Position numbers and translations under genes: made by a program. The notes under the pieces are model-generated. The model did no database searches, was not told where the DNA came from, and worked only from the letters and a program-made list of their open reading frames with translations. Positions 25,101-59,800 of a stretch of 64,000 bases of DNA are shown one piece after another. The DNA is from Albugo candida (lineage: Eukaryota), in the NCBI GenBank assembly GCA_040437565.1, contig JBDOQK010000045.1:1-64000 (forward strand). The letters are read 5' to 3'. How positions within the stretch are numbered: position 1 is the stretch's first letter; every line of letters begins with the position of its first letter.

Positions 25101-26748
25101 ACAGGTGGTGCACGAGCCGTGCTCTAACCGATCTTGCAAATGAAAGCTTGAACCAGAGTTCAGAGCAAATAGTTAGTTCTCCCTCAAGTTGAGTTGAACT
25201 CCAGCCGAAGTGAAACGGTCTATCGACCAGAATGAAGGTGCTGACCAAAAAGTCTGTTTAGCTGCAGTAAATGCGGTGCATAAGCCCAGAAATAATGAGT
25301 TAGATCATTGGTACTTTCATGTTTTAGAACCTCGTCTCCACGAGATCATTTTGGATACGATACCCGGTGATTGACTTCCTGTCAGACCAAAGCAATTGAC
25401 CAAAAATGTGGAGACCAATTAAGAATGTTGTTATACCACGCATCTGGGCTAAAACGGATGTATCACGAGTGGTGGAAAATTCAACAATCTTCGTAAAGCG
25501 TAGTTGATTGTCAACTCAGCAACCACTCGTATCCAGCTTGTCGCTCCCTTTAAACGAGCTATATCTCAACCATCTACTTTTTGATGCAGCCTTGACTCGG
25601 CTTTATTGCTGAATACGATCGAGGATGGTATGAACATGCTTTCGCGTCACACTAGTAAACAGAGCACAGAGAAAGTGTTCTAAGATATCGTAAATACTTT
25701 ATCGATGTCTAGCAATACAATTGCCGTAATTTCATGGTACATAATTTCGTTTTCTTCTCGTCATAACAGTTCTCACACCAAAACGATCGCTTGATCTCAG
25801 CAAATATTCTTCGAATCTAGTTTTGAATCGGAGCATGACTTGATGGTTTTATTCATGATATGGATCCCAATAAAGTTCAGCAATAAATGCACTTGCTGCC
25901 TTCCACGCTACTCGGTTTTGGGTCACGCTCAGCGTCGTCTCTCCAAACCACCGCAGCATGACACACCATGGATCGGCATGAATAGCTGTCGTGACTTGCT
26001 GTGATGCTTTTTAATGTCCGAGTCGAATTAATGCGCGACAGCTACGTCTGATGCTCCTTCATGTCGAAGCAGAGAACATGCTCTCCTTATAGTGATGGGC
26101 ATGCAAGCTTCCTCAGATCAAACCCACATTTTGTAACTCAGGATACAATCCATTAGTAGTTGAGACTTTGCCACTTGTATAGACAATCTAAATGCGATGA
26201 TCCACCATTGACATCCTCTTTGCTGAGTAGCTAACATGTGCGCATAAATGCATTCCCATGGCGATAAGATCCCTTCATAGATAACATTGAAAATCCACGT
26301 CGAGATAATGTCCTCTATCACCATATAATGTAGTGCCAAAACCGATTCTTCGGTGTCTCCTAAAAAACCTATCGACAAAAAAGCGAATCTCAAATTACGA
26401 CATTTTGATGAATTTGCAATTGCATTGGTTTCAACGATGTACCGTACTCCTCAAAACAAATAGCCACAATTTAAGCCAATCGCTACTGTCACCCAATTTG
26501 GTTGACGATTGACTGTCTCGCCACAAATCCATTGAAATCAATTCATTGCATTGGCTGGATAGACCTCAACCATTCACAACCAAATACACCCACTCGCCAA
26601 AGTGGCTGGGTTCGTTTCTCAAGTTAATTTTAAATATGTCGCACTGTAAGCATAAATAACTCCCACAATCCCCCCAATACAGTGAATGTAACAAAGTCAA
26701 TTCGACGATTTTTTGGTTACGGCGCGCATTCTACGTTTCCAATAGTCG

Positions 26749-29700
26749 ATGCTCAGGAGCCTTAAACCCGTAAATGAGGATATGAAACGAATAAACTCCG
26801 TCCGAATGACTGCAAAAGCATCATCGCGAGGTGACCCCGGAAAAACAAGCGACATGAGGCGAGCTTCATCGCCTACAGGCACATCTAGGATCAAATATAT
26901 GTTTTCTGATCTACTAATGATCATCGTCGATAGCTCGTTCACGCTGTACCTGCATGCGGCCCAGCTGACGTATTACTTTACCATCATACCCGTCCGAATT
27001 GGGCTGTATTATGATCCGGGTCACTCGTCTCGCCCGCTTGAATGGTCAAGTGAAGTCACTGTATTCACAGCATTCAACGTGATATGGGACACTTTCGGCT
27101 TCTGTCTGTTTGTCACGCATCTGGGGTGTTGGTGGAAGATGCTGCGAGTTGCACACAACGACACGCAGGACTCTAATGACGCCTACAATGACGGAGCTCA
27201 TCATCAACGTAAGTCAATTCATCGAGCATCGCACCTAAACGGAGCGCATATATTGCATCGAGCAAAATGGCCCAATTCTGAGTATGTTGCCAGCTTGTTT
27301 GATATTGAGACGATAGATACTTTGGCTGATGGTGATCAACCCTTGCCATCTCGCCCTCTATCACCAAAAGATCATTTCAAAATGCTTTTGCACGCTATAG
27401 CTATCTTTCCGGTGGAGCTACTAGTCTTCAAAAGTAATCCGAATGCGATGCATCTTGTCCGATGTACCAAATTCGTATGTCTGTACCTAATGGGCCCAAA
27501 AGTGCTTGAAGGTATCCACAAGCGGATTGAGCGCTGGAAATTAGTGTCGTACATTCAGGAGCGCGTACTTCGAGTGATTCTTTTCAGATTTTTGATTGCC
27601 GGGCTCTGTTGGATTCATTGGACCGCTTTAATGTATATATTCATCGCCCATCTCGAGTGCGGAAAGGATTTGGATAGATGCGATGATGAAGGAGCAAGTT
27701 GGGCACTACGGGATCAGCTTGTGCACGCGACGAATGTCCGAAAGTATATCCGAGTGGTTTATTGGGCAACAAGAACAATTGTCACGCTGGGCTTTGCAGA
27801 CACGACACCCACAACCGTCGGAGAAACAGTGTTTGTACTCATTATGGAATTCGCAGGCACTTTCTGGTCGGCTTTTGTGATCGTAGCGTGGGCTTATTTG
27901 TTTTCATCTTTGGGAAATGCGTCTCAGACACAGGAGATATTTATCTCTCACGTCAAAGAGTACATGGATGGCGTTCCTCAAGTTCTGCAGGATCGCGTTA
28001 TTGCTTATCTCCAGCATGAATGGAAAATGTCTGGTGGGCTGGACGAGGATAAATTCCTCTCGGTTATCACTGTGGAAAAGCTGCAGAGTCGATTCCATCA
28101 CGAACTTAAAGCGACTCGACTGAAAGTTCTTCCTTGCTTTGCCGTTGAAACTACTGGATTTCTGAATGAATTGGCGGCCGAAATGAAATTTGAGACGTTT
28201 GCACCGCTCGATTGGCTTTTCGAGTATCCTGAAACAGAGCAAGTCATGTACATCATCACGTACGGCTACGTGGCGATGCTATCGATTCCTGCTGGCTGGC
28301 GTAAGCAAGATCGGAAAAATACAACCAAAGTGTACACTTGTATACCCGGCGACACCGTCGGTGCATTATCTCTATTCGGTCCGGGGCTTTTTCGCTTTGC
28401 TGCTTTTGCAGAAACATTCGTACAGGCTCTACGGATGGACACTAAAGCCTTCCAGAAAGTGCTTACAGCATGCTACCCGGATACTACTCTTCGTGAGCAG
28501 CGAAAAGCAACAGTCAATAGAGCAGCAGAGCGTACGTATCAGGACCTTGTAGCTCGTCGTGCAAAACAAAAGCATCAATCTGGATTCGACAAGAAGAAGA
28601 ATCAACGCGAAGCTGCAATTATGATTGGATTCAAGCGTGAAGCTATCAGTGACGTCACGTGCTACTGGGAATCTCAGCGGCAACGAGAAGAATGCGTCTC
28701 ATGGGAATGGTATCAAGTAAAATCCAAATTTCGATGGTTTTGGAATTACTGGCGGTTGTTTTGCTCGTGTTATGTGGCTTTCGAAGTGATTTTTGTTCTG
28801 ATTTTCTGTAAGGGCGACGCGCGATTCAAAAACTCTGCTTTTGGCGAACTCAAGTATGCAGTCACCGTTGGCGTTGAGCTGTTCACTATGTCGGATATCG
28901 TACTTCGATTCAGATACTTTGAGGACTCTGTCGCCATCGATCAGCTTGTATCGTCCTCAACCACGTCTTCTTTCGATGCTTTCAGGACCGGATCCATGAC
29001 CAGTTCTTCTCTATTTGCTCGATTTCAGCCTTATGCGCTCGATATTGTATCATGTCTTCCCATTTCACTAATTACAGATCTCGTTTGCGGCATCACAGAC
29101 AGAAAACTATCATCAGCACAGTCGTTTATCTACTGGTTTCGTCTCCTTCGTCTACTTCGACTATGGCATCTTCCCCAGATCATACAAGATGTGCTTCAAA
29201 ATGTACACAGCTCGAGTCAGTTGTTGTTTAAAAGCTTTCTGGGGGTCATTTTCTACTGTCATTTTTTCGGCTGTTTTTGGTACAACGTGGGTCATAATTC
29301 ACTCGACGTCAATGCAATTGATCCCATCACACTTTCACGTGGCGAATGTCTCATTCGTGCACAGACGAACGGGACATGCTCGTGGACGCTTATGGATCGT
29401 CTTGAGGGGGATCACAAAAACAGTTTGGAGCATCAATACCTTCGCTCGCTGTATTTTACAATCAGCACACTCACTACTGTCGCGTATGGGGACATTGTCG
29501 CATACAGCGATAGTGAGACGATTCTGGCAACGATTATGATNNNNNNNNNNNNNNNNNNNNNNNNNNNNNNNNNNNNNNNNNNNNNNNNNNNNNNNNNNNN
29601 NNNNNNNNNNNNNNNNNNNNNNNNNNNNNNNNNNNNNNNNGTCTCATTCGTGCACAGACGAACGGGACATGCTCGTGGACGCTTATGGATCGTCTTGAGG

Positions 29701-32700
29701 GGGATCACAAAAACAGTTTGGAGCATCAATACCTTCGCTCGCTGTATTTTACAATCAGCACACTCACTACTGTCGCGTATGGGGACATTGTCGCATACAG
29801 CGATAGTGAGACGATTCTGGCAACGATTATGATTTTTCTTGGAGGATTTATTTGCTTTGGTGTCACAGGAGCACTCACAGCCGCAGCAGCTCGACTTGCT
29901 TCTCAATATCGTGATCTCCTTTTCCAAGATCACTTGCGAACACGTTTTTTTGGAAAAGCTCATATTTCCAGAACTCTGCAGCTGGAAATTCGGCAGTATT
30001 ATCATATTATTCGACAGCAGCAAACGTATCTACAAACGGAAAAAGAATTGGCTTCTCGGCTATCGCGAGGTCTTTGGGCTGAATTATCGATACGTTTGTA
30101 TCAGGAAATCTGTTCACCGGCTACACCTCATCTTTTTACCTGTTTGATACCAATTTTAGAAGACAAGTCGAAAGTGGTTCTACAAACACAATCACATGAT
30201 TTCCTATCCGCTGTTTGTAGCCGTCTCCAGCGACAAATCGTGTTCCGAGAAGATCACGTTGTGATTGCCGGTGAGCCAGCTTCTAGTTTCTACATCATTT
30301 GCTCCGGACAGGTTCAAGCTTTAGAACCAATTTCAAGGAGTTTGTGGCAGCTGTTGACCGAGAAGATGCTTATTGACCTTCGTTATGCTCATATCGAAGG
30401 AGGCGATGAAGTCGAGTACGCCCGAATTGATCCACCGGCTGTATGGAGTGTTGATTGTATTGCAGTTTCCATGACTGAGATCGTCTCTCTCAAACTGTCA
30501 GACCTCGTCGATATTCTCAGCAACTTTCCAACGATTCGAGCAATTCGGCAGCACCATAATATGATTCTAATGAGACAAGCGAGGAAGGAGCGGGCGTGTG
30601 TTGTCGACAATATCGCTCGATACAAAGTACAAAAAATCTCAGGAATGCTGAATGAGACTACTTTTCCGGTACGAACACGACTCGGAAGCGCCAAGCGACA
30701 AAGTATGCGTAATGGCCCTCGACCAAGCGGTATTTCATTACGACGACTTTCTGTGCTCCCACAAAACTCGATCTGGTCACGTCTTAATAACGTCCTCACC
30801 AACGTTTTACATGTTCGGAGAAAACTCTTCCGCCCAACAAATCAGTCCATCAACGCGACCAAAGTCTCCAATTTGGAAGCGAGTATGACCTACAATGCGC
30901 AAAGTCGGGCACTTACTATGCATGCTTCAGCTTCCTGGCAACGACAATCGAAAACAGAGCTTCGACGCTCTATATGGGATAGTCTCATTGGAGGTGTGGT
31001 GATGTACAACATGTACATTGTGGTTCTACGTCTTGTATTCCTTCCCTCACCATCCACCAAAGCGATGATTGCGTTCACATTCTTCGATTATTTGTTTGAC
31101 GCGCTTCTCCTTTACGATATATATCTCAGAATGAACGTTTTTCCACCTCGAACGTGGCTTCCTGGAAAGCCGATAACAGTCACTCAAATTCGAAAGTTTT
31201 ATCGTCAGAAATGGTTCACTCTGGACATCCTCGCCAGTATTCCTCTGTATTACATTGGAAGCAATTATGACTTGATGACATGGTTTCGTCTTCCTCGTCT
31301 CTTACGCTCCTTCCAAATTGTTGAAATTACCGAAACACTGCAAACGTTTATCCTTACGCATCTTTACACCTCACGACGCGCGTATTCGCTTTTGTCACTT
31401 TTCAAAGTTTTGGCCATTTTTATCTTCTGCTGCCATTTTGCTGGCTGCATCTTTTACGCGATTGCGAGCTTGGAAATGAACCCTCACGGATGGATTTGGA
31501 AAGATGTCGTCCTGATGGAATCAAACAAGACAGCGGATCTCAGTAAGCCCGTTACTTTCTCCAAGACAACAGCGTATATTCGAGCATTTTACTGGGCGCT
31601 CTCGAGCATTACTGTGATCAATTACGGGGATGTGGTGCCCACTTCGTTTCATGAGACCCTGTGGGCCTGTCTCGTATGTCTATTTGGCTTGTTTGTAATC
31701 AGCAGCATTGAAGGCGAAATTGTCGAGTTTTTCACCAGTATTGATCGCACCTTCTCGACGCATCGACACCATTTAGAGGCTTTTCATGACGTATCTCGTG
31801 TTCGAGGCGTTCATTCAGCCCTACGCAGCAAAGCCGAGCGGTATCTCAAGCTGCAATATGAGATCGAAGAAGGACTTGAACCACACAAACTCTTTAACGA
31901 TCTCATCCCACCGTTAAAAGAACGCATTTTTATGGAGTTGGAGGGCTCGATAATCCGTGTTCTTCCATTATGGCGTGATATTTTGAATCCGATGCAAGTG
32001 CAAGAGCTCTGTGCGGTGTTTGTTGTCCGACTATACCTTCCAAGCGACATAATTATCTATGAACAAAGCGTCGGTAAGACATTACATGTGGTTAAAACCG
32101 GGGTAGCTCGTGTGGTGCATATGGCGACTTCAATGGAGTACACCGTTCTTCGAAGTGGGCAAATGTTTGGCGAGTTATCGTTTTTTATTCCGTCCAGCGA
32201 ACGATTAGCATCTGTTCTCGCCGACACTGTCTGTGAAATCTTGGAGCTTGATCGACCCAATTGGGAAGTATTTGCTACTCGAGTTCGCAATAAAAAAGCG
32301 GTCGAAGAGATTGAAGCCGAAGTACGAAAACTCGAGAAAATCATGAAGAAGCGGAATAGTATTGACGAAATCCCGGAGGAAAGCGTGGTCGAGTCTGGAT
32401 CATTGATTACAAGCAAACTACGGTCGCAATCGTTTACGTTCGGAATGCATGAGAGCAAAATCTCAGCTAAAATTGGGGACAAGGAGAGGAGAAAAAGCGT
32501 TGGATGTAAATCAAACGCACGGGTAGAAAAGCGTGCGTCGACAAAGACGTCAGAGACTCCGAAAGGAGTCCGATCCTTTCGAGACCTTATCATCGGTCCT
32601 GTCAAGTCGTCGATCAAATCAAATCGAGCGAGTAAAGCGGCAGGAGAAATTGTCGAAAGCACTGAATTAGCATCGAAAACTTACAATTTCTACTTTTTCT

Positions 32701-34607
32701 CCATCAGTGACGACGTTTTTATCGAAACATCTCAATTTCGATACATTTGGGATTGTATCAAATTTGCAATGACGACATACTTTACAATTGCTATTCCGAT
32801 GCGAGTGGCTTTCTACGACGATATTATGAACGACAATGGAAATAAAGACTCACACTGGTCGGCTGGATCGTTATGGGTCCATTTTGAGCACGTCGTGGAC
32901 GCTTTTTTCTGGACAGATATCGTGTTACGACTTGTTTTCTTTCGACCTGTTGTACGTGGTGCAGTTGTTCAAAGTCGTCGAGAGTGTATCCGACATTACT
33001 TCAAGACTGGCTTTTATCTCGACGTTATTGGATCTACTCCATTCGAGCTCATCACGCATCTTCCGATCAAGTTTTTTCACGATTATCATACATTGAGCGT
33101 CTCACTCTTTCGAATGGAAACACTTGTCCGATGTGCCGAGCTGGAAATGCTGTGGCTTCGTGCAGAGGCGTTTTTGTTCTACAACGCGGGTGAAAAAGAA
33201 GACGGCAAGCCAAAACCGAAGGGATATCTAACATGGATACGCACATGGCGTCAAACGACAATGTCCGCGGCCAAAGTGGTGTTTATCGCGCTCATTTCAT
33301 CGCATTGGATCACTTGCTTGTGGTACGTAATCAGTCACATTCAATGGGATGCGAGACCAGACTCTTTGTCTTGGCTCACGACCTCGTACATGTTGTCACC
33401 CGACTGTGACACAGTTCCTGTCGACTCGATTTCTTTTGTGACGAAATACGTTCGATCGTATCATTACGCGATCGGATCCATTTCGGCAATCTCATACGGA
33501 GACATTTCAGCACGCAATGTGCCCGAAACAATTGCTCAAATTAGTATCATTTTTCTGGCGATTGTGTTTTTCGGATACATTACGGGAAATTGTCAAAAGA
33601 TTCTCGAGCGAATGTGTTTGGAACGGGTGGAGTATGAAGAGCACATCTTGAGAGTGAAGCAGTTTTCCAAGCTTGTGGGTATGTCGCCGTCCTTTGTCCG
33701 GAAAGTATGTGATCAATTTGCACGGTACCATCAGCCGGTAGCGACAACAGCGCTCGACGCGAGCCCAATCGACTCGGCAGGACCACAGGATGGTGAAAGC
33801 AGTGCTAATTTAGCCGCAAGTGGAAAACTACCGAATAGTTCTATTGAAGGAAGCGCTGTGAATGGCGAGAGGCAAACAGGCACAACGTTTGCGTCGTTCT
33901 TTAGCGCGACTTCCAATTCGTTCATGTCGACGCTGAACACGAGTAGCTCTACCCGGAGAGATATGAGGTGTATGTACCTCCCTCTGAATCCAAAATGGCA
34001 TCTTCGAGCCTTAGATAATCTATCCAGCCAACTCAGAGCTGACATCACAGTATTCATGCGTCGTCAATTGCTGTCAGCGGCAGAGAGACGAATCATGCGT
34101 TCTACAGCCGTGTATAGCTCCTCTCGATCGTCTCCACATCCATTTGAAGGCTTTGATCCCGTTGTCGTTCGTGCTGTTCTTATGCGACTTCATATTGAAG
34201 TGTACGAGAAGAAAGACATCCTTTTCGAACAGGAAGGGCTCGGCAAGTGCATGTATTTCATTGAACGTGGTGTTGTGCTCTTGGAACGTGATCCAACACT
34301 GCATTCGAGTTGGTACAGTCAGCTGGAGAAGGACCGACATGATGAAAGTGGTAAAAATCGGGAAAAAGAACAGAATGTGACAAAAACGATGATCCGAAAT
34401 GTAAAGTGTGAAGGCGAATTCTTTGGAGCGGCTTCTTTGTTGGATGGAATTCCTCGCGATGCAACTTGCAGTGCTATCACTCGTATTCGAGTCGCTATCC
34501 TTCGAGACGCCGAGTATCGAGAACTTATCTCACTATTCCCGGAACATGTGCAGCTATTCCGAAGTGTGTGGAATTTTGATGAGGAAATCAGCAAAGATAA
34601 GCATTAG
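26749..34607 (+). CDS. Four-repeat cyclic-nucleotide-binding voltage-gated-type cation channel (tetraKCNG/CNGK-like architecture), ~2,520 aa
   Basis: The 1027-aa and 1640-aa ORFs join in frame once the 100-N gap and the 193-bp duplicate (29641-29833 = 29348-29540) are removed. There are four TM/pore/CNBD repeats with pore motifs TLGFAD, TVAYGD, VINYGD and AISYGD, S4-like RLLRLLRL and RLPRLLR, and CNBD FGELSFF..ERLASV. Confidence 0.9.
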
Positions 34608-34717: not shown

Positions 34718-36055
34718 TTATGTCACTGCGAGCTTACGAGCAAATCTTGTGCATGCAATCGCAAGAGCGGTAATGGGAGAAATCGAAGAGGAGTGGTCTA
34801 ATGCAAAGCAGTTCTTACTAATCTTTCCAAAACGGAGATATACTTTATCCTCCTGGCCTTGATCTCCCAATTCCTCCGTGTCCTTCTCTACCATTAATAG
34901 ATTCTTCTTTGAAGCTTTCTTGACTCTCCCATCAAACGCAAGCGTCCACACAAACGCCTGACTATTCCATGCAGGCTTCTTGGATTCCAACACTCGCAAA
35001 TCGTTGCTGCTTGTATCATCAGATCCACAACATCGATACGGCATCCTCGTGCCTGTAGGCTCAGTAGAAGGATCAACATGCTTTTGCACTGTTAACTTGC
35101 ACGAGAAACTCCAAAATGTTTCAATGACAGAAGTATGTTTAAGTGTTTCTGACTGACGTAAGAGCTCCGCTAAGGACTTTGACTTGGCAAAACTCGTTCC
35201 GTATCGAGGAAGATCGGAAGCCGCACGAAGACGCGATCGACATGCAGGAATTGCACAGCGTAGGCGATTGGGTACTTTACCGAGTAGATTCGTGTCGTAT
35301 TGCAGCAGTGCAAGTTCGTTCTGTTGATTCCCGTAAAGCGTGAATGTCGTACCGAGAAAATTGGCTTTCATTCGACCCAAGTAAGTCGCACTAATCTCAC
35401 CATGTGGTAGCTCATGAAATCGCCTCAAATGGCTGTCCTGAAGCGTATGGAATACAAATTCACCGGTCATGTCGTTGATACATGAGCTTGCGAGAACAAA
35501 CTCCCCAGCCTCCGTGTAAAAATGGAATGAAGTGACATTGACACCAACAAAACGCTCCNNNNNNNNNNNNNNNNNNNNNNNNNNNNNNNNNNNNNNNNNN
35601 NNNNNNNNNNNNNNNNNNNNNNNNNNNNNNNNNNNNNNNNNNNNNNNNNNNNNNNNNNAAAGCGTGAATGTCGTACCGAGAAAATTGGCTTTCATTCGAC
35701 CCAAGTAAGTCGCACTAATCTCACCATGTGGTAGCTCATGAAATCGCCTCAAATGGCTGTCCTGAAGCGTATGGAATACAAATTCACCGGTCATGTCGTT
35801 GATACATGAGCTTGCGAGAACAAACTCCCCAGCCTCCGTGTAAAAATGGAATGAAGTGACATTGACACCAACAAAACGCTCCACGGAGCCAAGAAGGACG
35901 GACTCCTTCCCATCGTCTCCTTGTGCTTGATAATATCGTTCTTTATGCGCTTGTATATGCCGCTTTGCATCCACAATACGCCTACAGCCATCGGAACCTG
36001 ACTGAGGCTTTTGATTCATCCGAAATTTCCGAAAATTGATAGCCGATTCTGGCAT
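34718..36055 (-). CDS. Tubby-like protein (Tub C-terminal domain), ~337 aa after removing the gap duplicate
   Basis: Motifs YLGRMKANFLGTTFTLY, YDTNLLG..P, KKPAWN..WTLAFDGRVKKASKKN, LRFGKI, FALD...SPITALAI. An in-frame 324-nt artefactual insertion sits at gap 35559-35658. Confidence 0.9.
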   Translation of the reverse strand: MPESAINFRKFRMNQKPQSGSDGCRRIVDAKRHIQAHKERYYQAQGDDGKESVLLGSVERFVGVNVTSFHFYTEAGEFVLASSCINDMTGEFVFHTLQDSHLRRFHELPHGEISATYLGRMKANFLGTTFTLXXXXXXXXXXXXXXXXXXXXXXXXXXXXXXXXXXERFVGVNVTSFHFYTEAGEFVLASSCINDMTGEFVFHTLQDSHLRRFHELPHGEISATYLGRMKANFLGTTFTLYGNQQNELALLQYDTNLLGKVPNRLRCAIPACRSRLRAASDLPRYGTSFAKSKSLAELLRQSETLKHTSVIETFWSFSCKLTVQKHVDPSTEPTGTRMPYRCCGSDDTSSNDLRVLESKKPAWNSQAFVWTLAFDGRVKKASKKNLLMVEKDTEELGDQGQEDKVYLRFGKISKNCFALDHSSSISPITALAIACTRFARKLAVT

Positions 36056-36180
36056 TATGGCGATGCGTGCGAGTCGATTCCATTGCCAATATTAGTACAC
36101 AGAAGTAATAATAGAAATGTGCTTCCTCCACAATCATATTAATAGTTTCTTAACTCAATTGGAACAAGCTTACACTACTT

Positions 36181-36792
36181 TCACGAACTTTTGTTGCAGG
36201 TGCACGGGTCACAGGTGCAGTTGGTACACGTGCAATTATCGCCACACTTTTTCGCAGCTAGTTTTTGACGAATGTGGGCCAGCTCGACAGCCGAATGAGC
36301 CCATTCGGTTCCGTGGTTGCATGCTTTGCCATTACACGTTCCAGTCTTTTTTGCACATCGTGTTGCTTCTTCTTCGCTCGGGCATGTCAAAAGACCCAAT
36401 ACAACAGGTGTGTTTGTTTTCACGTTAAGCTTCATTATACCCATAGCGACTGCTTCGCTCACAAATTCATATGCCATCGTGACACCTTTCACCATGCACC
36501 CGATGACAATTACAGCATGAAGTGAGTCTCTGCGCGTCTCAATGAGACGGCTAGCAGCAAATGGCAGTTCGTAAGCCCCAGGGACCTTGATCAGGTCAAT
36601 GTTAGCTGCGCTGACACCATTAGACTCGAGTTCCTTTCGACATGCATCGCTTAATGGATCCACAATGTGATCATACCAATCCGTGGTTATGATTGCGACC
36701 CTCAGGTCTTTGGGTGCTTTTAAAGGTGAACTCAGAATAGGAGGCGCCACAGTTGACGCAGTGGCTGTAGAGGCGGTAGAAGACGTTGCCAT
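36181..36792 (-). CDS. RIB4: Lumazine synthase-like protein 1 with Cys-rich metallothionein-like C-terminal tail (203 aa)
   Basis: LRVAIITTDW, VPGAYELP, AVIVIGCMVKG.T, PVVLGLLT, NHGTEWA..AVE match the 6,7-dimethyl-8-ribityllumazine synthase family. ATG at 36792. Tail is KKCGDNCTCTNCTCDPCTCNKSS. Confidence 0.9.
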   Translation of the reverse strand: MATSSTASTATASTVAPPILSSPLKAPKDLRVAIITTDWYDHIVDPLSDACRKELESNGVSAANIDLIKVPGAYELPFAASRLIETRRDSLHAVIVIGCMVKGVTMAYEFVSEAVAMGIMKLNVKTNTPVVLGLLTCPSEEEATRCAKKTGTCNGKACNHGTEWAHSAVELAHIRQKLAAKKCGDNCTCTNCTCDPCTCNKSS

Positions 36793-36917
36793 GATGCTAG
36801 AATTTCTCAAATGGCAGTCATGAGTCGAGAAGTTGTCCTTGGCACAGTTGTCCGGGACACGTCGACATGTCTCGTGGTACAGCAACTGCAGTGTTATTAA
36901 CGTTACATCATTCCTTC

Positions 36918-37508
36918 CTACTCCTTCGTCTTGTCTTGACAATATTGTTGATAGCTGCCCGTTGAAACAGGACACGTGAGCTCCTTCTTTTTCAAATTCG
37001 CGTTAAAGTGAGCCATCGCGATGGCCGAGTGCGCCCACTCGATACCGTGGTTGCATGCGACCACTTTGCCTCCTTCGATGCCCACGCAAGATTTCGCTTG
37101 TTCCATGTCGACACAGTCGAGAACGCCATTCAATACGGGTACTTTGTAATGTACGCTTAGCTTCATCAACGCTCGAGTTACAGCCTCCGCCACAAAGTCA
37201 AATGCTAGCGAGCGCCCGCGAATAAGGCAGCCGATGCAAATGATCGCATCCAGCTGACCTTGTCGAGCTTGAAGCAATTGCTTCAGCACGTACGGCATTT
37301 CAAACGGAACATTCACCTGTTCCTCTTGGATATCTTTGCGAGCTACACCTCGCAAGAGGAGCTCACCTCGGCAGGCACGTACCAGAGCGTCGACAACTTG
37401 ACCATTTTGACGGCTATAGATTAGTGCCACACGAAATCCATTGCCATCCGGCGTCGACTGTGTTCCCAATAACGATGGGGCTTCTACTTGTGTTGGGCTT
37501 GAGATCAT
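36918..37508 (-). CDS. Lumazine synthase-like protein 2 (196 aa)
   Basis: DGNGFRVALIYSR, VNVPFEMP, DAIICIGCLIRG, VPVLNGVL, EQA, NHGIEWAHSAIAM. ATG at 37508. Confidence 0.88.
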   Translation of the reverse strand: MISSPTQVEAPSLLGTQSTPDGNGFRVALIYSRQNGQVVDALVRACRGELLLRGVARKDIQEEQVNVPFEMPYVLKQLLQARQGQLDAIICIGCLIRGRSLAFDFVAEAVTRALMKLSVHYKVPVLNGVLDCVDMEQAKSCVGIEGGKVVACNHGIEWAHSAIAMAHFNANLKKKELTCPVSTGSYQQYCQDKTKE

Positions 37509-37644
37509 TTGATAGTGCTTATGAAAACTGAGCAAAGTCCGAGGCTTCACAGGTCAATACAGTTGGCAATGTGGGGACATGGCGACGATGAGACAGATAT
37601 GGCTATTTACATTCACAGACTTGTGTCATTACCATCTTAACATC

Positions 37645-38157
37645 CTACTCGAATTTCTGAGGGTGGCAGAACAGAATCTTATTCAATAGAGCCATTTTCA
37701 CAACTCGTGTCGCCACCTCTTCAGCAAAGAATCCTTCCTCTTTTCCAAGCCCAAATACTTCGAGGGCATCGGTCTCATCATTAGCTGGTAGTACTCCCCA
37801 AATGATCGGGACATCCATATCCAGACTCGCTTCCATCACCTCGTGCGTTACGGCGTCGTATCGAAAGGGAAGTGAGGGATCTTCAACATTCGGCCTTACC
37901 TGTCGGTGCTTTGTCGGAAAAACGCATCCAATGCAAATAACTCCGTCAAAAGTATTTGCCTGGTAGCCCTGCTGTATTGCCAGTAAGAACTGATCGGAGT
38001 CCTGCAGTAGTAACACGTGAACGTTCCTGGCTTGCACTTGGTACTTTGCCAACTGATCTTTGCATCGAAGCAGAAGTGCCTCGATCATTGGCTTTGGCTC
38101 TTCCATCGCTACAATCAATATCCTCCCGAGCGGTAGGGACAGCACGGCTTTATTCAT
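37645..38157 (-). CDS. Highly divergent lumazine synthase-like protein 3 (170 aa)
   Basis: RILIVA, FDGVICIGCV, YDAVT..VM..SL...VPIIWGVL and EEVA..VVKMA align with the two neighbours. The VPG.xE loop is lost. Confidence 0.7.
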   Translation of the reverse strand: MNKAVLSLPLGRILIVAMEEPKPMIEALLLRCKDQLAKYQVQARNVHVLLLQDSDQFLLAIQQGYQANTFDGVICIGCVFPTKHRQVRPNVEDPSLPFRYDAVTHEVMEASLDMDVPIIWGVLPANDETDALEVFGLGKEEGFFAEEVATRVVKMALLNKILFCHPQKFE

Positions 38158-38495
38158 AGCTACTTGAAATGAGTACGAGAAAGATCAGTACATTAGGCCG
38201 TTGGAAACGGCGTCTCTCATGAGAATCGCTCAACCGCCAACTGATTTTGCTCGTACAGCTTTTGATAGAGAAGGAGCGCTTCAATAAGAGATGATCCTTC
38301 CTGACAGAAGTAGTGAGCAGAAAGAGTAAAAAGGATTTTTTATTTTTTATCAATTGCGAGCACTATATCGATTCAAGGGATGTTACCCGGGAATCCTGGA
38401 ATGCTTTGAGCGTAAAGGAAGGACCAAACAGAGCCCGAGGACATTGAGAGCCTTCCTGGGGCCATAAATAAACTGCAGACTGTTGTATCATTGCC

Positions 38496-39516
38496 ATGCG
38501 AGTGGCTCATTTGACACGCATTTCCGTCGGCAGAAATGTGCTTCAGACCTCACGTTTACAAGCCTTCAAATGGCGGAGTAATAAACAGCGCCATATAGCG
38601 AGTCGCCGCTTTTCGTGTGCGAAGCCTGCAATCTTATGCTTATACAGCGAGTTTCAGGTCGCAGAACAGGGGATGGAGGCATTGGAATACCTCAGTAGGT
38701 CGTGTCTAAAGTAAATAACAACATATATTGTGATTAAAGGGTGTTGCGTGTAGCGGCTCAGCCATTTTGCTTCCACAACGTACGGACTCTGACACGTGGC
38801 AATTACTCACTTGTCAACACATTGTTTGCCCCTGGCGATTTCCGCGCTATTTCAGCGAAAAATGGGACTGGCTTCAGTTTGTTCAGCCTCCACACGTTCA
38901 GTATCGCGTCGTCTTGATGGATCCCCACGCGAAAATTCTGTATGAAGCGCAGTTGGATCCAAAGGTGTGCTTGCATCCGTTGCGTGACGTTGCAATGCTT
39001 TCCATTTCGGACGATATCGCTTGTTTATCACTAACAAAAGCGCTGGAAACCAATTCTATGGGGCCTGTGGATTTTGACCCAGAAATGCTCGAAATTGGAG
39101 CTGTACGTTTTTGTTCTTTTGCGAATCTTATTTGACCCATTGGCGCGTAGAAGGTGAAGATATACGGCCATGAAGCCGATGAATCGTCCGATTTTGTCCC
39201 TCGATGCGTATCTGGACACTTTGCCGGTCAAAATGGTCACAAACAAGCGTTCGCTTGGACACAACAAGCTGTGCGTGAGGGAATGTGTGGAGGAGCTGTG
39301 TTGGATCAAAAGTGTCGCGCTATCGGTGTGATTGAAGGAATTGTACCAAAACACACAGATGGCGATGAATCGAGCAGTATTGATCAGAATTTGGCAGAAC
39401 ACGTCGCAATGATTCCCTCCGATGTGATCCAATTTTTTATTCAAAAACATCAAACGAGTGAGCGGGAATTGGAAGCTGTCATTACAGGCACCGCGTTAGC
39501 CTCAAATTGTCAATAG
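38496..39516 (+). CDS. Trypsin/chymotrypsin-fold peptidase-like protein with Cys at the nucleophile position (3 exons, ~305 aa); first assembled copy
   Basis: Exons 38496-38698, 38754-39102 and 39151-39516 join in frame through GT-AG introns of 55 and 48 nt. Motifs: SGSAIL, LTCQHIV, HPLRDVAML, EGMCGGAVLD...AIGVIEG. The N-terminus is Arg-rich with no acidic residues. Confidence 0.8.
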
Positions 39517-40296
39517 ATTCGTGCACTTGCGATACGCTGCAAAGACTTCCCATAAGACTCACTTACGAGAGCTTTGGACCCTGCTTTCGCTTCCAGCTCA
39601 ACTCGTTCAATTTTGTGTTTAATTGGGAGACAATCGGCTCGACGACGCTTCTTGTGCTGTCATTCATATAACTATCAGCTTGTGTCAGCCGCTGAATCGC
39701 TTTTGTCAAAGTTTCGCCGCTGTTTGAAGTGAGGTAGGCATTCACTGCTTCGTGGAATTCGGCCTTTGTGTTTGCATCGTTGTGGGGGGAGTCTTCCTCA
39801 GAGTAAAACGGCACACATAAGAGATTGAAAAGTGTTTTGGATACATTGGCAATAAGGTCGGCATACTCGTCAAGTTTTTGGCTCTTTTCCAATAAAACAG
39901 CCTCACAGGCTTCCAGGCAGCCTGAAGAATCACACGAGGCATCAATCAACTGAAGTCGGGCGTTTGGGCACAACGCTGCATTCATCAGCACCCCACATGC
40001 TGCATGAACAATGCCGAGATTCGAACTGTGCAATAGCNNNNNNNNNNNNNNNNNNNNNNNNNNNNNNNNNNNNNNNNNNNNNNNNNNNNNNNNNNNNNNN
40101 NNNNNNNNNNNNNNNNNNNNNNNNNNNNNNNNNNNNNTTTTTATTTTTTATCAATTGCGAGCACTATATCGATTCAAGGGATGTTACCCGGGAATCCTGG
40201 AATGCTTTGAGCGTAAAGGAAGGACCAAACAGAGCCCGAGGACATTGAGAGCCTTCCTGGGGCCATAAATAAACTGCAGACTGTTGTATCATTGCC

Positions 40297-41363: not shown

Positions 41364-43869
41364 TTACGAGAGCTTTGGACCCTGCTTTCGCTTCCAGCTC
41401 AACTCGTTCAATTTTGTGTTTAATTGGGAGACAATCGGCTCGACGACGCTTCTTGTGCTGTCATTCATATAACTATCAGCTTGTGTCAGCCGCTGAATCG
41501 CTTTTGTCAAAGTTTCGCCGCTGTTTGAAGTGAGGTAGGCATTCACTGCTTCGTGGAATTCGGCCTTTGTGTTTGCATCGTTGTGGGGGGAGTCTTCCTC
41601 AGAGTAAAACGGCACACATAAGAGATTGAAAAGTGTTTTGGATACATTGGCAATAAGGTCGGCATACTCGTCAAGTTTTTGGCTCTTTTCCAATAAAACA
41701 GCCTCACAGGCTTCCAGGCAGCCTGAAGAATCACACGAGGCATCAATCAACTGAAGTCGGGCGTTTGGGCACAACGCTGCATTCATCAGCACCCCACATG
41801 CTGCATGAACAATGCCGAGATTCGAACTGTGCAATAGCTGCGTAATGTGTCTCAATATTCCATTGGAAGCTATGGCTGCGACTACATCCTCCCATCTTGT
41901 GAGATTGCCAAACGCTCTAACCGCTTCCATGACAGCTTCCTCATTCATATTTTCAAGTGTACGACCCAACAATAACGTCACACGTAGCCGGGAAGCGTAA
42001 ATCCAGTCTTGTTCGCCTTCAGGAGCTTCCAAATAGGATTTTCGACTGCACGAATGATACGACAAGTTTGTGAGACAACTCACAATATTCAGCATCAATT
42101 CGTCGAGTTGTTGGCAAAATATTTCTTCTCCGTATCGACTTGTACCTGCAGCCAATTGTATGGCCTGAAGGCACTCAATCAGCGCCACGATCCGCTTATC
42201 AATTGTAATCTGCTCGCTAACACTCGAATTGATTGCAACATTCGCAATGAGACGAACCAATCTGATCAATAAATCCAAGTTTTCAGTCATCGTTTCGTGT
42301 ACGATCATTTCCTCGCTTGATAACTTGCTCTCAGAGGTCAAGCTGTCGATCGATTGCTGCAATAAAGTCTCAAGAAATCCAAAAAAAACGTCACGTTCGT
42401 CACAATCGAAATAGATAATCTCGCGATTACGATCATTTCCAGCACTCAAATTGCCGAGTACAACAACGATACGAACGATTGTCACGTGGATGAGTTGCAG
42501 GTCGTTACTGTCTTGATCTGGGCTGTCTTGCTGTCTGATACAATGGCGTAACATTTCCAGAAACATTGAAATGTTCTCAGCGGCTTTGCCATTGATTTGA
42601 GCTCGCGATGGCTCGTGAAGCGTGAGATTGCTCAGAATTCGGAAAATGTTGCATAGTAATTCGATCTGATCGACGCAGCATGCAGCTACATCACAAAGTC
42701 TCTGAGAGACCTGAGCCTGATCGAATTGCCTCAGATGACGTTTTTTTTGTAAAGTTCTCAACAAGCTCGTCGTCTGAATCAAACAGTGAACGACTTGCAG
42801 TTGAAGTGTCTCATTTTCCCATGCAAATGCATTCGACCACAATAGCGTCCTTGCAAATGTGCCAATAGCTCCACTGGTTGCGAGTATGTCTTGCATTTTT
42901 CCGTCAGTGTTGGCGACATTTTTAAGTGTGCCAAATGCGTACAAAAGAGCTTTCAGAGAAAATTTAGGCTTGCGATTTTGCCCGAGACGATCAGAGACGA
43001 CGTCGGTGACACTCAGAATGCTTTCAACGTACTGCACGGTAAAGAATCTGTCATTGCTAGCATCTTTGCTCAATGTGAAAAGTGCTTTGGCAACAGAAGT
43101 CACGTCACTTTCTCGTTCGTCTTTGAGGTCGCTAAAATTGCTCGAGTTATCGGAAACGAGCGCTTCGTCCTCTACTCTCGTACACAGTTCAATAATGGTT
43201 GGGAAAGCGGCCATCAACGCCTCGATTGAGTCGGTATACTTTGGCAGTACGAGGCTCAGCATTGAATCACATGCCTTAAAACGCAACCGCTGGACGTTTG
43301 CTTTATCGTACTCACTTTTTTGCGCTTTCAATTCCAGCAGTGAAGCTTGAGCAAACTCTGACGCGACTTTTCTCAATTCAGATAGGTGGGCTAACTGCGA
43401 TTCTGCGTCGATTGCTAAATCATCCAGTAGTGTTAATTGATCAAAGAGTGCAGACAGATGCATCTACACTCATTGGAAAATGAGCCGATTCTGTCCAAAC
43501 TTAAAGAACGCGGATTCTTACATGCAGAGGAGATGGAGAAGAAGCCTCGTTATTCACACGTTTGTCTGCCTCGACGCTTGGCCGAATGTCACGTTTAGCT
43601 TCAGATACCTTTGTATCTTGATGTTCCCATCCACCTCGTACTTTTGAGTCGTCTTCGAAAGTGTGAGAAGCTGAGGCTGTTTCGATCGAGGTCGTGCAGG
43701 AAATTACATTTTCGCGAGGAAATGAAGTGTGTTCAATACTGATTCTATGACTGTGTCGGGGCAATCGAGGAACGCATGCTCCTAATCGAGAATCATCCCG
43801 ATGAAGAAGAGTACGCCTATGTGAAAGCGGTGTAAAAGGCCTCGAAGGTTTGCTGAGAGACGCTCTTGC
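41364..43869 (-). CDS. ARMC2: Armadillo repeat-containing protein 2 homologue
   Basis: The 699-aa ARM-repeat exon (GTLKNV, LGNLSAGNDRNR, RLIANVAI, LTNLSY, EAVRAFGNLTR, ACGVLMN) joins in phase 0 through GT-AG intron 43464-43521 to exon 43522-43869. That exon carries ARASL..PSRPFTP, typical of the ARMC2 N-terminus. The first exon is unresolved. 39563-40037 is an assembly duplicate of the 3' end. Confidence 0.8.
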
Positions 43870-54551: not shown

Positions 54552-56798
54552 ATGTTTCGAAATCGATTGGAATGCGTGGTCTCTATGTGGAGACAGCGAC
54601 AAAGACAATGGTATTCGTCGTACGCTCCGATCAACCGCTTGTACCTCACATCGACAGATTACGTCCCATACACTGCTCCGCTTCTTTTGGGTCTCGCGAG
54701 CGTTTTGGAGCAAAAGTATGGTCGCATTGGATACTTTCGTCCAATTCTTCCGACACGAAAACAACGCCCAATCGATCATCACGTGGAACTCATGCAAAAG
54801 CTATTGGGACTCGAACCACACGCTACGACACAGCCTCTGTATGCGCTCAGTAGCGAAGAAGCTTTGGAATTCTGTCTTCGAAACGAACAAGATCAATTGA
54901 TCGATCAAATTCTCTTCACACTCGATAAAGCTCAACGAAACCACGATTTCATGATCATTGAAGGCTCAGCATTCCCGTCACATGAAACCAATTCTGTCAG
55001 TTGGCAACTTCACAAACAAATTGCAAATGCAATGGGCGCGTCTGTGATTTTATGTATGGACGCAGGAACTCGTGAATTCCCATCAAATACGTCGGAATTA
55101 GTGAATGAGATTGTCATTCGTACGCTTCTCGGAAGAGAATCCGCCGAAGCGGAACATGTCAATTACTTTGGAACACTTATCAATCGCGTCCGCGTCAACG
55201 ATCCGTCTGCGTTTGCTTTGGAATTGGAGAAAGCTTTTGAGAAGAATACAATTCCGTATTTGGGCTTTCTTCCGTACGATCGCGTCTTAGCGTCGCGAAG
55301 ACTCAATGAGGTTGCCTATCGACTCGGAGCCAAAGCTGTTGTCAATGTCAATGACTCTGCGAAAACGGTCTCTGTATCGGACATTGTGGTCGCAAGCAGT
55401 CAATTGAAAGAATTTCTGCATCACGTCAAAGACCGAAAGGATGGACTTTTAGTGCTCACATCCGCCGATCGATCGGATATGCTTTTGGGGCTTTTAGCTT
55501 CCCGTCTTCCGGGAATTCTCCCGCGAATTGCCGGCATTCTTCTCACCAACGGCGAGTACCCCGACAGTCAGACACAAGCGATACTCAATGGCGTCGCGGA
55601 ATCCCATAAATCAGGTCTTTCGATTCCCATTTATCTCATTGGAATGGACACATACACTGCCGCAACGGAATTGCATACAATTCGAACGGGAATTCTTCCA
55701 ACAAGCGTACAGAAAATCGCCACAAGTCAGACGCTCACGGAGCAATTCATCAACAAGAAACTGCTTATCGGCGAATTGGCGCACGGATTCATCTCAAATT
55801 GCTCCCCGAAACAATTTGAGCACATTTTATACACCAAAGCACGCAACGCAAAACGACATATTGTGCTTCCCGAAGGCAATGACGAGCGAATTCTGCGTGC
55901 AGCCGATGAGATTCTCCGATCGAATATCGCGACATTGACAATTCTTGGCGATGTGAATGAGATCCAATTGCAAGCGAAAACGTTGGGTCTCGATCTATCA
56001 ATCGCGACAATAATCGATCCCGCGAAATCGGAGCATTTGGAGCGATATATCGATCGATATCTCTTCCTTCGAAAGCACAAAGGCGTTGTCAAAGATATGG
56101 CTCGCGATGTCGTAATGGACGCAACGTATTTCGGCACGATGATGGTGGAAATGGACGATGCGGATGGGATGGTCTCTGGCGCGTATCACACAACAGCCGA
56201 TACGATACGACCCGCTTTACAGCTTATAAAGACACTTCCAAATCGACCTTTAGTATCGAGTATTTTCTTCATGGGATTACAAGATGGTGTGCGTATCTTT
56301 GGCGATTGTGCAGTGAATACGAATCCATCCGCTGAAGAATTGGCTCAGATTGCAGTGACCAGTGCTGAAAGTGCCCAAGCCTTTGGAATCCATCCTCGTG
56401 TCGCGATGCTTTCCTACGCAACTGGTGAATCCAACTCGGGACCCAATGTCGACAAAGTGCGTGCGGCCACGCGAATCGCGCAACAATTACGACCCGATCT
56501 CGATATATTTGGACCGATTCAGTATGACGCTGCTGTGGATCAAGCAATAGCAAAACAAAAACTCAAATCGCCTACCGCGCAGAGTATGCGCGTCGGAGGT
56601 CATGCGAATGTGCTCATCTTTCCCGATTTGAATGCCGGTAATAACACGTACAAAGCCGTCCAACAAGCAACGCGATGTATTGCGATCGGTCCAATGCTTC
56701 AAGGCTTACGGAAACCCGTGAATGATCTCAGTCGAGGCGCTACCGTCAAAGATATCGTCACTACTGTCGCGATCACTGCGATTCAAGCGGATGCATAG
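54552..56798 (+). CDS. pta: Phosphate acetyltransferase, long (type II) form
   Basis: N-terminal region GYFRPI...IIEGS, then DRSD, then the catalytic domain IVLPEG.DERILRAA, DGMVSGA.HTT.DT.RPA, GDCAVN.NP, GPIQYDAA, FPDLNAGNNTYKAVQ, PVNDLSRG. The ATG at 54552 or 54585 gives an Arg-rich presequence-like start. Confidence 0.95.
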   Translation: MFRNRLECVVSMWRQRQRQWYSSYAPINRLYLTSTDYVPYTAPLLLGLASVLEQKYGRIGYFRPILPTRKQRPIDHHVELMQKLLGLEPHATTQPLYALSSEEALEFCLRNEQDQLIDQILFTLDKAQRNHDFMIIEGSAFPSHETNSVSWQLHKQIANAMGASVILCMDAGTREFPSNTSELVNEIVIRTLLGRESAEAEHVNYFGTLINRVRVNDPSAFALELEKAFEKNTIPYLGFLPYDRVLASRRLNEVAYRLGAKAVVNVNDSAKTVSVSDIVVASSQLKEFLHHVKDRKDGLLVLTSADRSDMLLGLLASRLPGILPRIAGILLTNGEYPDSQTQAILNGVAESHKSGLSIPIYLIGMDTYTAATELHTIRTGILPTSVQKIATSQTLTEQFINKKLLIGELAHGFISNCSPKQFEHILYTKARNAKRHIVLPEGNDERILRAADEILRSNIATLTILGDVNEIQLQAKTLGLDLSIATIIDPAKSEHLERYIDRYLFLRKHKGVVKDMARDVVMDATYFGTMMVEMDDADGMVSGAYHTTADTIRPALQLIKTLPNRPLVSSIFFMGLQDGVRIFGDCAVNTNPSAEELAQIAVTSAESAQAFGIHPRVAMLSYATGESNSGPNVDKVRAATRIAQQLRPDLDIFGPIQYDAAVDQAIAKQKLKSPTAQSMRVGGHANVLIFPDLNAGNNTYKAVQQATRCIAIGPMLQGLRKPVNDLSRGATVKDIVTTVAITAIQADA

Positions 56799-56850
56799 GA
56801 TGTGTCGGTTTCCAAGCAACAGCTTTATATTTAGAAGCTGGAAGCATCGA

Positions 56851-59800
56851 ATGATTCCACGGACGATCACATCGCCGACCGCAGGTCTTGTGCCTCGACA
56901 GCATGAGAAAGCGATATGTCAGGTGTCGGAATGCAAAGCGAAATCGTATCCGTACGATCGATGGATTGTATTCCTCGTCGTCTTTCGATTGCTCGATTTC
57001 ATATATCTCTTCCTTTCGATTCCGCTTCGTATCGGATTTTTCTTCGATCCGTTCGTAGCGCACGCGTTTGCGTGTGGCACATGGCGTACATCGACGACTG
57101 TGTTTACTGTTTTGGATGTTGTGGCGGAAGGGATCGCATTCAGTCATATCGCTGGACTTCGAAAGCGTCAACGTCGAGCGATTGCATCACTTGCCGATGC
57201 TGCAGCGTGTCCAAATGTCCAAAAGAGAAAAGCTCGACCGATTCCAATGCGAGATCCTTCATCGAGGGAAGACACGTACGATTCCAAGACATCCAATACG
57301 ACTCAAACAGTCGAAGCGCTTTCTCTATGGTATCTAATGTCAATGCTGCCTTTGGAATGGATCGCTGCATTCACAGGTGTCAATACGCTTCACGTACTGA
57401 GACTTCATCGAATGCTGAGGCTGCAGGGCGTTTCCGCGTGGTGGACGACTGTGAATGAGACATTTCCATCATTGAGATTCTTGAAACAAATGCATTTCGG
57501 TGAAAAGCTCTTGTACCAAACGATTTTGATCGGATGTGTTTCGTGTCATATCGCCGCCTGTGGGTACATGTGGATCGCTCATTTCGAATGCGGAATGGAG
57601 ATGGAATATTGCCCTCTTACAACTGCTGCAAGGGCGCATCGTCGACTCGACACGATAGCCACTCGTACATGCTGGGCCGTCGAAGATCGACTCACACATG
57701 CGTCGACGTTCCGAAAGTATAGTCGAGCAGTGTATTGGGCATCGAGGACGCTGATCACGCTCGGGTACTATGACGTCGCACCACGAACGAATTTGGAGAC
57801 GATTTTCAGTATGGGGATACAACTACTTGGCGCTGTGTTCAGCACGTGCATTATCGCGACGTTGTTGTTCATTTTCCGGTACCGAAATCTTCGTCGAGCG
57901 GAATTCAACAAGCACGTGGACAATGCCAAGCATCTGATGAAGCTGTACAAGCTTCCAAAGAAGATTCAAAAGCGTGTGTTTGCGTACTATGACCATGTTT
58001 GGAACGTGTATTCCGGGCTGCCGGGGGAACAATGCGTGCTGGAACGACTTCCAGAGCATTTACAGACGCAAATTCGGTATCAAGTACGCATCAAGAGGCT
58101 TTATAGCGTGTCGTTCCTCGGGAAAGAACCATTGGAATTTGTCAATCTTCTGGCCGTCAAGCTGTCACATCGCGTCTATGCGCCGAGAGATTGGATCATA
58201 CGTCGTGTGCCGACATCGATGTACTTTGTATCGATTGGGGAAGTGATTCTACACAATCAATCGGCGTGGAAAGACAAAACGCGACTCATTGGCGTCGGCG
58301 ATCATTTCGCATCGAATGCGCTACTTCACGCGGAATGGAATGTCGATATTGTCGCTCGAGCACATACGTTTTGTGAGCTGCATCAGCTTCCACATCACGC
58401 TTTCCACGATACATTACATGCGTTTTTCGGTGATCAAGCAGGCGTCCAACTGGAAAGGATGCGTGTGCAGCTTTCTCGGAAGGATCAACAGCAGCAAAAG
58501 ACGGAGAAAATGTTGGGGAAACGAGTCACACAACGATTCACCGTGCTGTCCATTGGCGATACATTGCATGAGGAGAACATGGACACTCCAATTGGAGTCT
58601 ACCGACTGATGTATTGGATCCAAAGCATACGACCTCGAAATTGGTTTCGGGAATGGACGCTGCCGGAGAGTCCATTTCGATACTATTGGGAACACTTTCG
58701 ATGTATCTGTTTGACATTTATCGCGTTCGAAGTTCCTTTCTATCTCGCGTTTGATGGAGGATGGCCATTTTTCAAAGACGATAGCAACGAGATCGATCGG
58801 ATGTGGGCAATTGTTGTAGAGGTTTTCTTCGGGTTGGATTTCATGTTTCAATGTCGTTATTTCGCGGTATTGGATCCCGTCTTACAGACACTCGTTCATG
58901 ATCCCGCGTACTTGATGGAGCATTACAAATTGAATGGAATGACACTCGATGCGGTCGCGTTACTTCCCGTGCCATTGCTACTGGAAATTCTCTCGTTTCG
59001 ATCGAGTACCTCACGATGGATGTATTTGTTCCGATTACTTCGACTTTGTCGCTTGGCGAAATTCCATTTCCATTTGTCAGAGATTGTGAGGCTTCGAAAT
59101 CTCAGCTCTCGCGTGGAACGAGCATTACGACTCTTTATGTACGCGACGTGGACCATGCACGTGACTGGATGTCTATGGTTTGAGATGGCACGACTCAGTA
59201 TGCCGCCAGTGTTTCCAATGAGAGGGAACGTGACACGCTCGAGCTGCCTCGAAGATGCAAATGTACATCAGAATTGTTCCTGGCTCGTGTTTGATTGCTA
59301 CGGGCAGATGGCGACCCGTCTTCCAATGGAAAATAAAGACTCGAGCTACACAAAGTCGTTTGCGTACATCCGATCGTTTTACTGGGCTGTCGTCGCATTA
59401 ACGACANNNNNNNNNNNNNNNNNNNNNNNNNNNNNNNNNNNNNNNNNNNNNNNNNNNNNNNNNNNNNNNNNNNNNNNNNNNNNNNNNNNNNNNNNNNNNN
59501 NNNNNNAATCAATCGGCGTGGAAAGACAAAACGCGACTCATTGGCGTCGGCGATCATTTCGCATCGAATGCGCTACTTCACGCGGAATGGAATGTCGATA
59601 TTGTCGCTCGAGCACATACGTTTTGTGAGCTGCATCAGCTTCCACATCACGCTTTCCACGATACATTACATGCGTTTTTCGGTGATCAAGCAGGCGTCCA
59701 ACTGGAAAGGATGCGTGTGCAGCTTTCTCGGAAGGATCAACAGCAGCAAAAGACGGAGAAAATGTTGGGGAAACGAGTCACACAACGATTCACCGTGCTG

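Follow-up and report, generated by a model that had tools for sequence, protein, structure and literature searches.

The structures nearest to the protein described here are the pentameric lumazine synthases (LS) of fungi (Candida 2jfb/4kq6, S. pombe 1kyv and S. cerevisiae 1ejb; PF00885). The catalytic set of LS comprises Phe22, His88 and Arg127, and the R127T and H88K/K131N mutants have very low activity, according to the accessible part of PMC12871164. The type II LS of Brucella (RibH2) is a paralogue of low activity that is still a working LS (PMC2828483, accessible text). The archaeal pentameric riboflavin synthase 2b98 has a changed activity on the LS fold (Z 13.9, rmsd 4.2 over 134 residues). 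We know of no Cys tail in either RibH2 or 2b98.

Plant metallothioneins consist of two Cys-rich domains and a spacer, the C-terminal domain containing three CxC motifs, and the 7-Cys Cu-thioneins of fungi offer a further comparison. Oomycete pathogens are widely controlled with copper, and oomycete metal handling is thinly described. In the accessible part of a 2020 review, metallothioneins are defined by composition (15–35% Cys, <10% aromatics), and predicted metallothioneins in oomycetes are given for Phytophthora (3) and Peronospora (2) alone (PMC7216689).

A Cys-rich tail in frame with an LS domain

We analysed a 64-kb stretch of Albugo candida DNA, referred to here as the window, which contains the following gene:

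36181..36792, (−) strand: gene A (P0001), a single-exon gene for a 203-residue putative LS-fold pseudoenzyme with a Cys tail (ORF, Pfam, RNA contig)
36271..36705, (−) strand: LS domain, residues 30–174 (Pfam DMRL_synthase, E 1.5e-41)
36184..36252, (−) strand: Cys tail, metallothionein-like, residues 181–203, spacing C-x3-CxC-x2-CxC-x2-CxC (sequence and Cys spacing)

The product of gene A is 99% identical to the annotated A. candida protein CCI10429.1, which falls in the same cluster, and scores 142 bits against PF00885 (cut-off 26.7), placing it in the LS fold family. Its tail, KKCGDNCTCTNCTCDPCTCNKSS, forms the 23-residue C-terminal end of the ORF, in frame behind an LS part of about 180 residues, and the whole protein has 13 Cys among 203 residues. 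As the initial annotation had reported, seven Cys fall within 17 residues at the C-terminus, as one lone Cys and three CxC motifs. Across all six frames of the 64-kb window, 14 stretches of 17 residues, at three places, hold at least six Cys, and seven are reached by the gene A tail alone. A longer, 264-residue start (P0002) was rejected; the extension opens at a Val codon and has no in-frame ATG.

We compared four of ten listed sequencing runs, none of them recorded as RNA, with region 35660–39560. One of them, X2, skips a GT..AG intron at 38694–38750 in a nearby gene and thus behaves as RNA. The X2 contig runs from 36169 to 36416, that is, from residue 126 to beyond the stop, without a joint, gap or mismatch, and X1 covers 36100–36308 in the same manner; the tail therefore lies in the same exon as the LS domain, a point on which the initial annotation had made its reading depend. 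X3 contains the entire stretch as a single piece, its tail differing by one non-Cys change, and the Albugo laibachii tail retains all seven Cys with different spacer residues. A splicing or annotation artefact is ruled out by the unspliced RNA contig and by the presence of the tail in annotated orthologues. No MRE-like word was found in the 130 nt upstream of the three tandem genes described below, using an animal motif, which makes for a weak test.

Gene A belongs to an oomycete paralogue cluster

PF00885 is found at five places in the genome. Three are tandem genes in the window, gene A being the first, and the other four genes are:

36918..37508, (−) strand: gene B (P0280), a 196-residue LS paralogue without the His/Arg pair, with two tail Cys in Albugo (Pfam, tree)
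37645..38157, (−) strand: third LS-fold gene (P0281), very divergent, 170 residues, no His/Arg and no tail (Pfam E 1.5e-14)
L001:1426–2079 (G000:C56), another contig: canonical LS P0018, motifs TMHFEY and ERAG (PF00885)
L005:1240–2154 (G000:C32): degenerate LS-fold gene P0019, 304 residues, no His/Arg (Pfam E 1e-11)

Because four of these five LS-family genes lack the catalytic pair, pathway reconstructions overcount LS. P0019, which has long low-complexity ends, is annotated as LS in A. candida. The genome also encodes riboflavin synthase, GTP cyclohydrolase II and DHBP synthase, away from gene A. The canonical oomycete LS (P0018 and the Phytophthora/Peronospora P0032 cluster) is 41% identical to gene A over 156 residues and differs from it in keeping His and Arg, in carrying a Cys-Pro-motif/hydrophobic extension and in lying at a separate locus. 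This conserved C-terminal extension has two Cys-Pro motifs, which we take to resemble haem-regulatory motifs, followed near the C-terminal end by a hydrophobic helix that is a possible tail anchor.

Gene A defines clade A, which we found in Albugo, Pythium, Globisporangium, Phytophthora (including PITG_15629), Nothophytophthora and Peronospora; none of the matches from our non-exhaustive protein searches and name look-ups was a named member of the Saprolegniales. Clade B, whose gene B cluster includes A. candida CCI10428.1 and A. laibachii CCA26750.1, has no His (0/16) and has Cys at the Arg127 position in 15 of 16 rows. Clade C has lost His and Arg and has no Cys tail, and both B and C have lost the Trp and the G55-A56 segment. 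A quick tree was built from 75 selected rows over 134 columns, leaving out the His, Arg and loop columns; in it, A, B and C formed one clade (SH-aLRT 96, no bootstrap) among the eukaryote-type LS, separate from the canonical oomycete clade and unlike RibH2 and 2b98. The long branches of P0019 (within A) and P0281 (outside) make their placement unreliable. P0281 matches clade C by position, the tree giving no placement; its profile scores are 44 bits for B, 41 for C, 34 for A and 34 for K. The A–B tandem order of Albugo is also found in Pythium: locus tags are adjacent in P. insidiosum (009913/009912 and 000957/000956), A. candida (CCI10429/CCI10428) and P. oligandrum (011804 for A, 011805 for B), where C (011807) lies three tags from A. 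Further A, B and C proteins come from contigs of matching length (8041, 22209 and 6763).

In P. infestans, the accessible part of PMC5322657 gives PITG_15629 a low and fairly flat level across four stages (4.9–15.9 CPM in untreated mycelium, sporangia, cleavage and zoospores). The neighbouring PITG_15628 and PITG_15627 show strong induction in sporangia and zoospores in the same source. We found no paper on PITG_15627–15630 in our literature search. Lumazine, riboflavin and metallothionein are missing from the accessible main text of a Saprolegnia copper transcriptome study (PMC4760756), and literature searches, which mostly covered papers outside subscription, returned no description of a tailed LS family. 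The fusion of LS with a Cys tail is real and conserved, and appears to be undescribed.

Half of the active site is replaced

B. subtilis numbering was set through 1rvv, to which the orthologue P0008 aligns with Z 21.9 and rmsd 1.4 over 146 residues, and columns were counted in hand-picked clade groups. The positions that bear on activity are:

36676..36678, (−) strand: Trp39, equivalent to B. subtilis Phe22 (pyrimidine stacking), kept; Trp in 23/25 of clade A
36568..36579, (−) strand: GAYE 72–75, equivalent to Gly55–Glu58, kept; Gly 25/25 and Glu 25/25 in clade A
36472..36474, (−) strand: Ala107 in place of catalytic His88; His in 0/25 of clade A and 9/9 canonical oomycete LS
36355..36357, (−) strand: Cys146 in place of phosphate-binding Arg127; Cys in 25/25 of clade A and 15/16 of clade B, Arg in 9/9 canonical LS
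36313..36336, (−) strand: loop residues Cys153, Cys158 and His160 by the old phosphate site (column counts)

Of the residues expected of EC 2.5.1.78, gene A thus has the Phe22-type aromatic and lacks His88 and Arg127. Thr86 is kept in 25/25 of clade A, and the Gly84 position is altered in Phytophthora and Peronospora (Asp in 6/25 of clade A). Albugo gene A has an Arg (Arg145) one position before the Arg127 site, a residue that is not conserved across clade A. New conserved Cys occur at 51, 146 and 158, the last in 24/25 of clade A, 14/16 of clade B and 0/9 canonical oomycete LS. Judged from these residues, clade A retains the ribityl half of the site but no longer has its phosphate/catalytic half; we take Gly55–Glu58 to be the ribityl-binding segment, and presume the roles of the kept pocket residues besides Phe22, His88 and Arg127. 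Cys146 and Cys158, together with His160, may now form a metal or redox site where phosphate used to bind. With substitutions at both His88 and Arg127 and a canonical LS encoded elsewhere, gene A does not look like the working enzyme, and the riboflavin-making role given to it by the initial annotation finds no support. Since LS is tolerant of many single substitutions, gene A may have some activity left; in S. pombe LS the His stacks riboflavin, so ligand binding may be weak in its absence.

The structural models are consistent with an intact LS fold. The AlphaFold2 model of gene A, an apo model, has a core mostly above pLDDT 90 and a tail at 44–56, and its top Foldseek matches were fungal LS (E about 1e-14, 36–40% identity). 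The fungal enzymes share with gene A the Trp, GAYE, Thr86, the NHG..W motif and a lengthened loop; gene A differs from them in lacking His88 and Arg127, in its extra core and loop Cys and in its Cys-rich tail. For P0008 the tail pLDDT was 38–74, and the LS domain took up the matches of a wide fold search, so that the tail was barely probed. Low model confidence is what would be expected of a peptide folded by metal, and is no proof of one. The loop after the Arg127 position has 19 residues in gene A, against 13 in Bacillus-type LS and 15 in canonical oomycete LS, and ranges from 14 to 31 among family motifs; insertions of this kind block capsid formation. With fungal pentamers as the nearest structures and a loop of 19 rather than 13 residues, we infer that gene A is more likely to form a pentamer than a 60-mer, so the 60-subunit particle at the upper end of the range first proposed finds no support.

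The tail is conserved in oomycetes and metallothionein-like in composition

We surveyed tails in 304 proteins, of which 297 were aligned and 289 were complete; seven longer than 560 residues or in tandem were excluded. Tails with at least five Cys were found in 0/212 proteins that have His and Arg, in 48/76 that lack both and in the one mixed row not at all (0/1). Because the rows are kin and tailed proteins served as the search seeds, these counts describe one evolutionary event and are not a statistic. They agree with two expectations of the initial annotation, that ordinary LS lack such a tail and that other oomycetes share it: 23/25 clade A members have tails of 7–50 Cys, mostly longer than in Albugo. 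The exceptions, P0005 with no tail Cys and P0023 with one, indicate together with Albugo gene B that the tail is dispensable in certain members. The Albugo spacing recurs in 14/26 clade A rows, where it matches the first module of longer, Pythium-type oomycete tails. A second module, CxxC-x4-7-CxC-x2-CxC-x2-C, occurs in 19/26 rows in up to four copies, CxCxxCxCxxC in 23/26 rows up to four times, and CxCxCH in 13/26 rows of clade A and 14/16 of clade B. From the recurrence of the spacing and the second-module counts, we infer that the Albugo tail is a shortened ancestral oomycete tail. An origin from the host plant was considered and is unnecessary, judged from the oomycete spacing alone. Searches for tail relatives gave little: residues 196–324 of P0008 against proteins of 30–177 residues (one candidate) yielded no match, the tail found only itself in its own genome, which does not show absence, and in the ESM Atlas P0001 led only to ordinary LS clusters, under 0.9, the long tail yielding nothing usable.

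With 30% Cys, no aromatics and CxC/CxxC motifs, the gene A tail falls within the compositional definition of a metallothionein, and like metallothioneins it has no confident apo fold. Metallothioneins differ in being free-standing small Cys-rich proteins, whereas this tail is fused to an LS domain and has no significant profile match, and oomycete tails have the repeat module of their own given above. The Pfam metallothionein families matched neither the gene A tail nor 14 orthologues and paralogues. PF01439 gave a single, non-Cys chance match and none at the tail, in a search in which HMMER struggles with a 23-residue Cys-rich stretch and no positive control matched; PF00131 found nothing, controls included, so that absence is not shown. 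The best PDB match, the metallothionein MT_nc (1m0j), was non-significant (E 0.12) and shares C-x3-CxC-x2-CxC-x2-C with the tail. The general likeness to metallothioneins suggested by the initial annotation therefore stands in composition, and its specifically plant-type identity finds no support in the PF01439 search, in the E value of 1m0j or in a spacing that is the first module of oomycete tails; the tail is also a single 7-Cys block rather than a two-domain plant protein.

Interpretation of the fusion

Having lost two catalytic residues and gained a Cys tail, gene A probably now serves as a metal-holding ring. The fullest form of this explanation, which we hold with about even confidence from the residues, is an LS pseudoenzyme ring that would bind Zn or Cu through its tails and may still accommodate a ribityl ligand in its pocket. 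Its product would make little or no lumazine and would assemble into a pentamer of the fungal type, either by itself or together with paralogue B. Each tail would wrap a thiolate cluster of Zn(II) or Cu(I), the tails contributing 35 thiols per ring in Albugo and 100–250 in most other orthologues. The pocket would keep a ribityl ligand (aminopyrimidine precursor, lumazine or riboflavin) without turnover, and the protein would serve as a cytosolic metal buffer or store near the flavin pool rather than as a metal-regulated enzyme. The pseudoenzyme reading is favoured by the replaced His88 and Arg127 beside kept ribityl/pyrimidine residues, by an expressed tail that follows the final helix and by the presence of a working LS elsewhere. 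Counting against a metal-holding ring are an alternative metal-handling route, phytochelatin synthase, encoded in the genome (L012, G000:C23:158858–159481, E 4e-84); the absent Pfam metallothionein match and the tail-poor members P0005, P0023 and Albugo B; and the low, flat level of PITG_15629, which is unlike that of a bulk store (PMC5322657, accessible part). A more elaborate version, in which the A-B-C cluster would form a hetero-oligomeric pseudo-LS ring with a Cys/His metal site in place of the former phosphate site and with Zn/Cu tails and act as metal–flavin sensor and store, the metal load governing flavin-precursor binding or the activity of the true enzyme, seems to us rather unlikely.

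It is unlikely that A, B (and C) act as regulatory subunits, co-assembling with one another or with canonical LS to throttle riboflavin production, the Cys tail and loop serving as a switch that responds to metal or redox state. Two neighbouring subunits contribute to every LS site, so a dead subunit would have this effect; the tandem order conserved in the P. oligandrum, P. insidiosum and A. candida tags is in keeping with it, and B and C, without the Trp and G55-A56, may therefore need a partner. Tandem duplicates, however, remain adjacent without binding each other, and the canonical LS, encoded on another contig and with a hydrophobic helix at its end, may be located elsewhere in the cell. 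We consider it very unlikely that gene A is a new enzyme on the LS scaffold, with Cys146, Cys158 and His160 remaking the former phosphate site as a thiol or metal catalytic site for a ribityl substrate and the tail providing metal or reducing power. The near-invariance of both Cys in clade A, adjoining the kept pocket, fits such a site, and 2b98 is a precedent for the fold, but the loop varies from 14 to 31 residues and the two Cys occur together in 13/16 of clade B.

The tail might instead buffer redox state, form disulfide cross-links or be acylated, or the dead pocket might be a decoy that takes up LS inhibitors or reactive precursors; we see only a slim chance of this. A low-complexity tail rich in Cys is not diagnostic of metal binding, but the repeated CxC/CxxC motifs with His, as in the CxCxCH counts above, fit metal ligation, and visual inspection reveals no signal peptide, which makes disulfides less likely. 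E. coli is still protected from the LS inhibitor flavophos by B. subtilis LS mutants that are nearly inactive (PMC12871164, accessible part), a precedent for a decoy, although that role leaves the tail unexplained. We give little credence to an active LS with a metal-sensing tail, the enzyme link drawn by the initial annotation. The protein retains the fold and one half of the site, databases annotate it as LS and low-activity LS isoenzymes can matter in vivo (PMC2828483, accessible text); yet no clade A member retains His88 or Arg127, and Albugo, Phytophthora and Peronospora each have a canonical copy.

The fusion is more unusual than it first seemed: its LS half appears to be catalytically dead and is one member of a conserved paralogue cluster. 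If the metal-holding ring is real, a metallothionein-like domain on a protein annotated as LS would be an overlooked part of the oomycete metal system, and a natural LS ring displaying metal–thiolate tails would be of interest to protein-cage engineers.

Surroundings of the locus

Gene A and its paralogues are flanked by a Tubby-family gene (34718–36091, (−) strand; Pfam E 6e-30) and an armadillo-repeat gene (41364–43463, (−) strand; weak, E 0.001). Two very long ORFs on the (+) strand, 26746–34607 and 56722–63772, resemble cyclic-nucleotide-gated channels by eye, with pore and nucleotide-binding modules in repeat. Sequence is doubled across 100-N gaps, about 35335–35559 matching 35659–35883 and about 38337–40018 matching 40139 onward, with similar duplication beside gaps near 29540, 49590 and 59405. 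These duplicates are scaffolding artefacts and account for doubled partial tubby, peptidase-like, ARM and channel genes.
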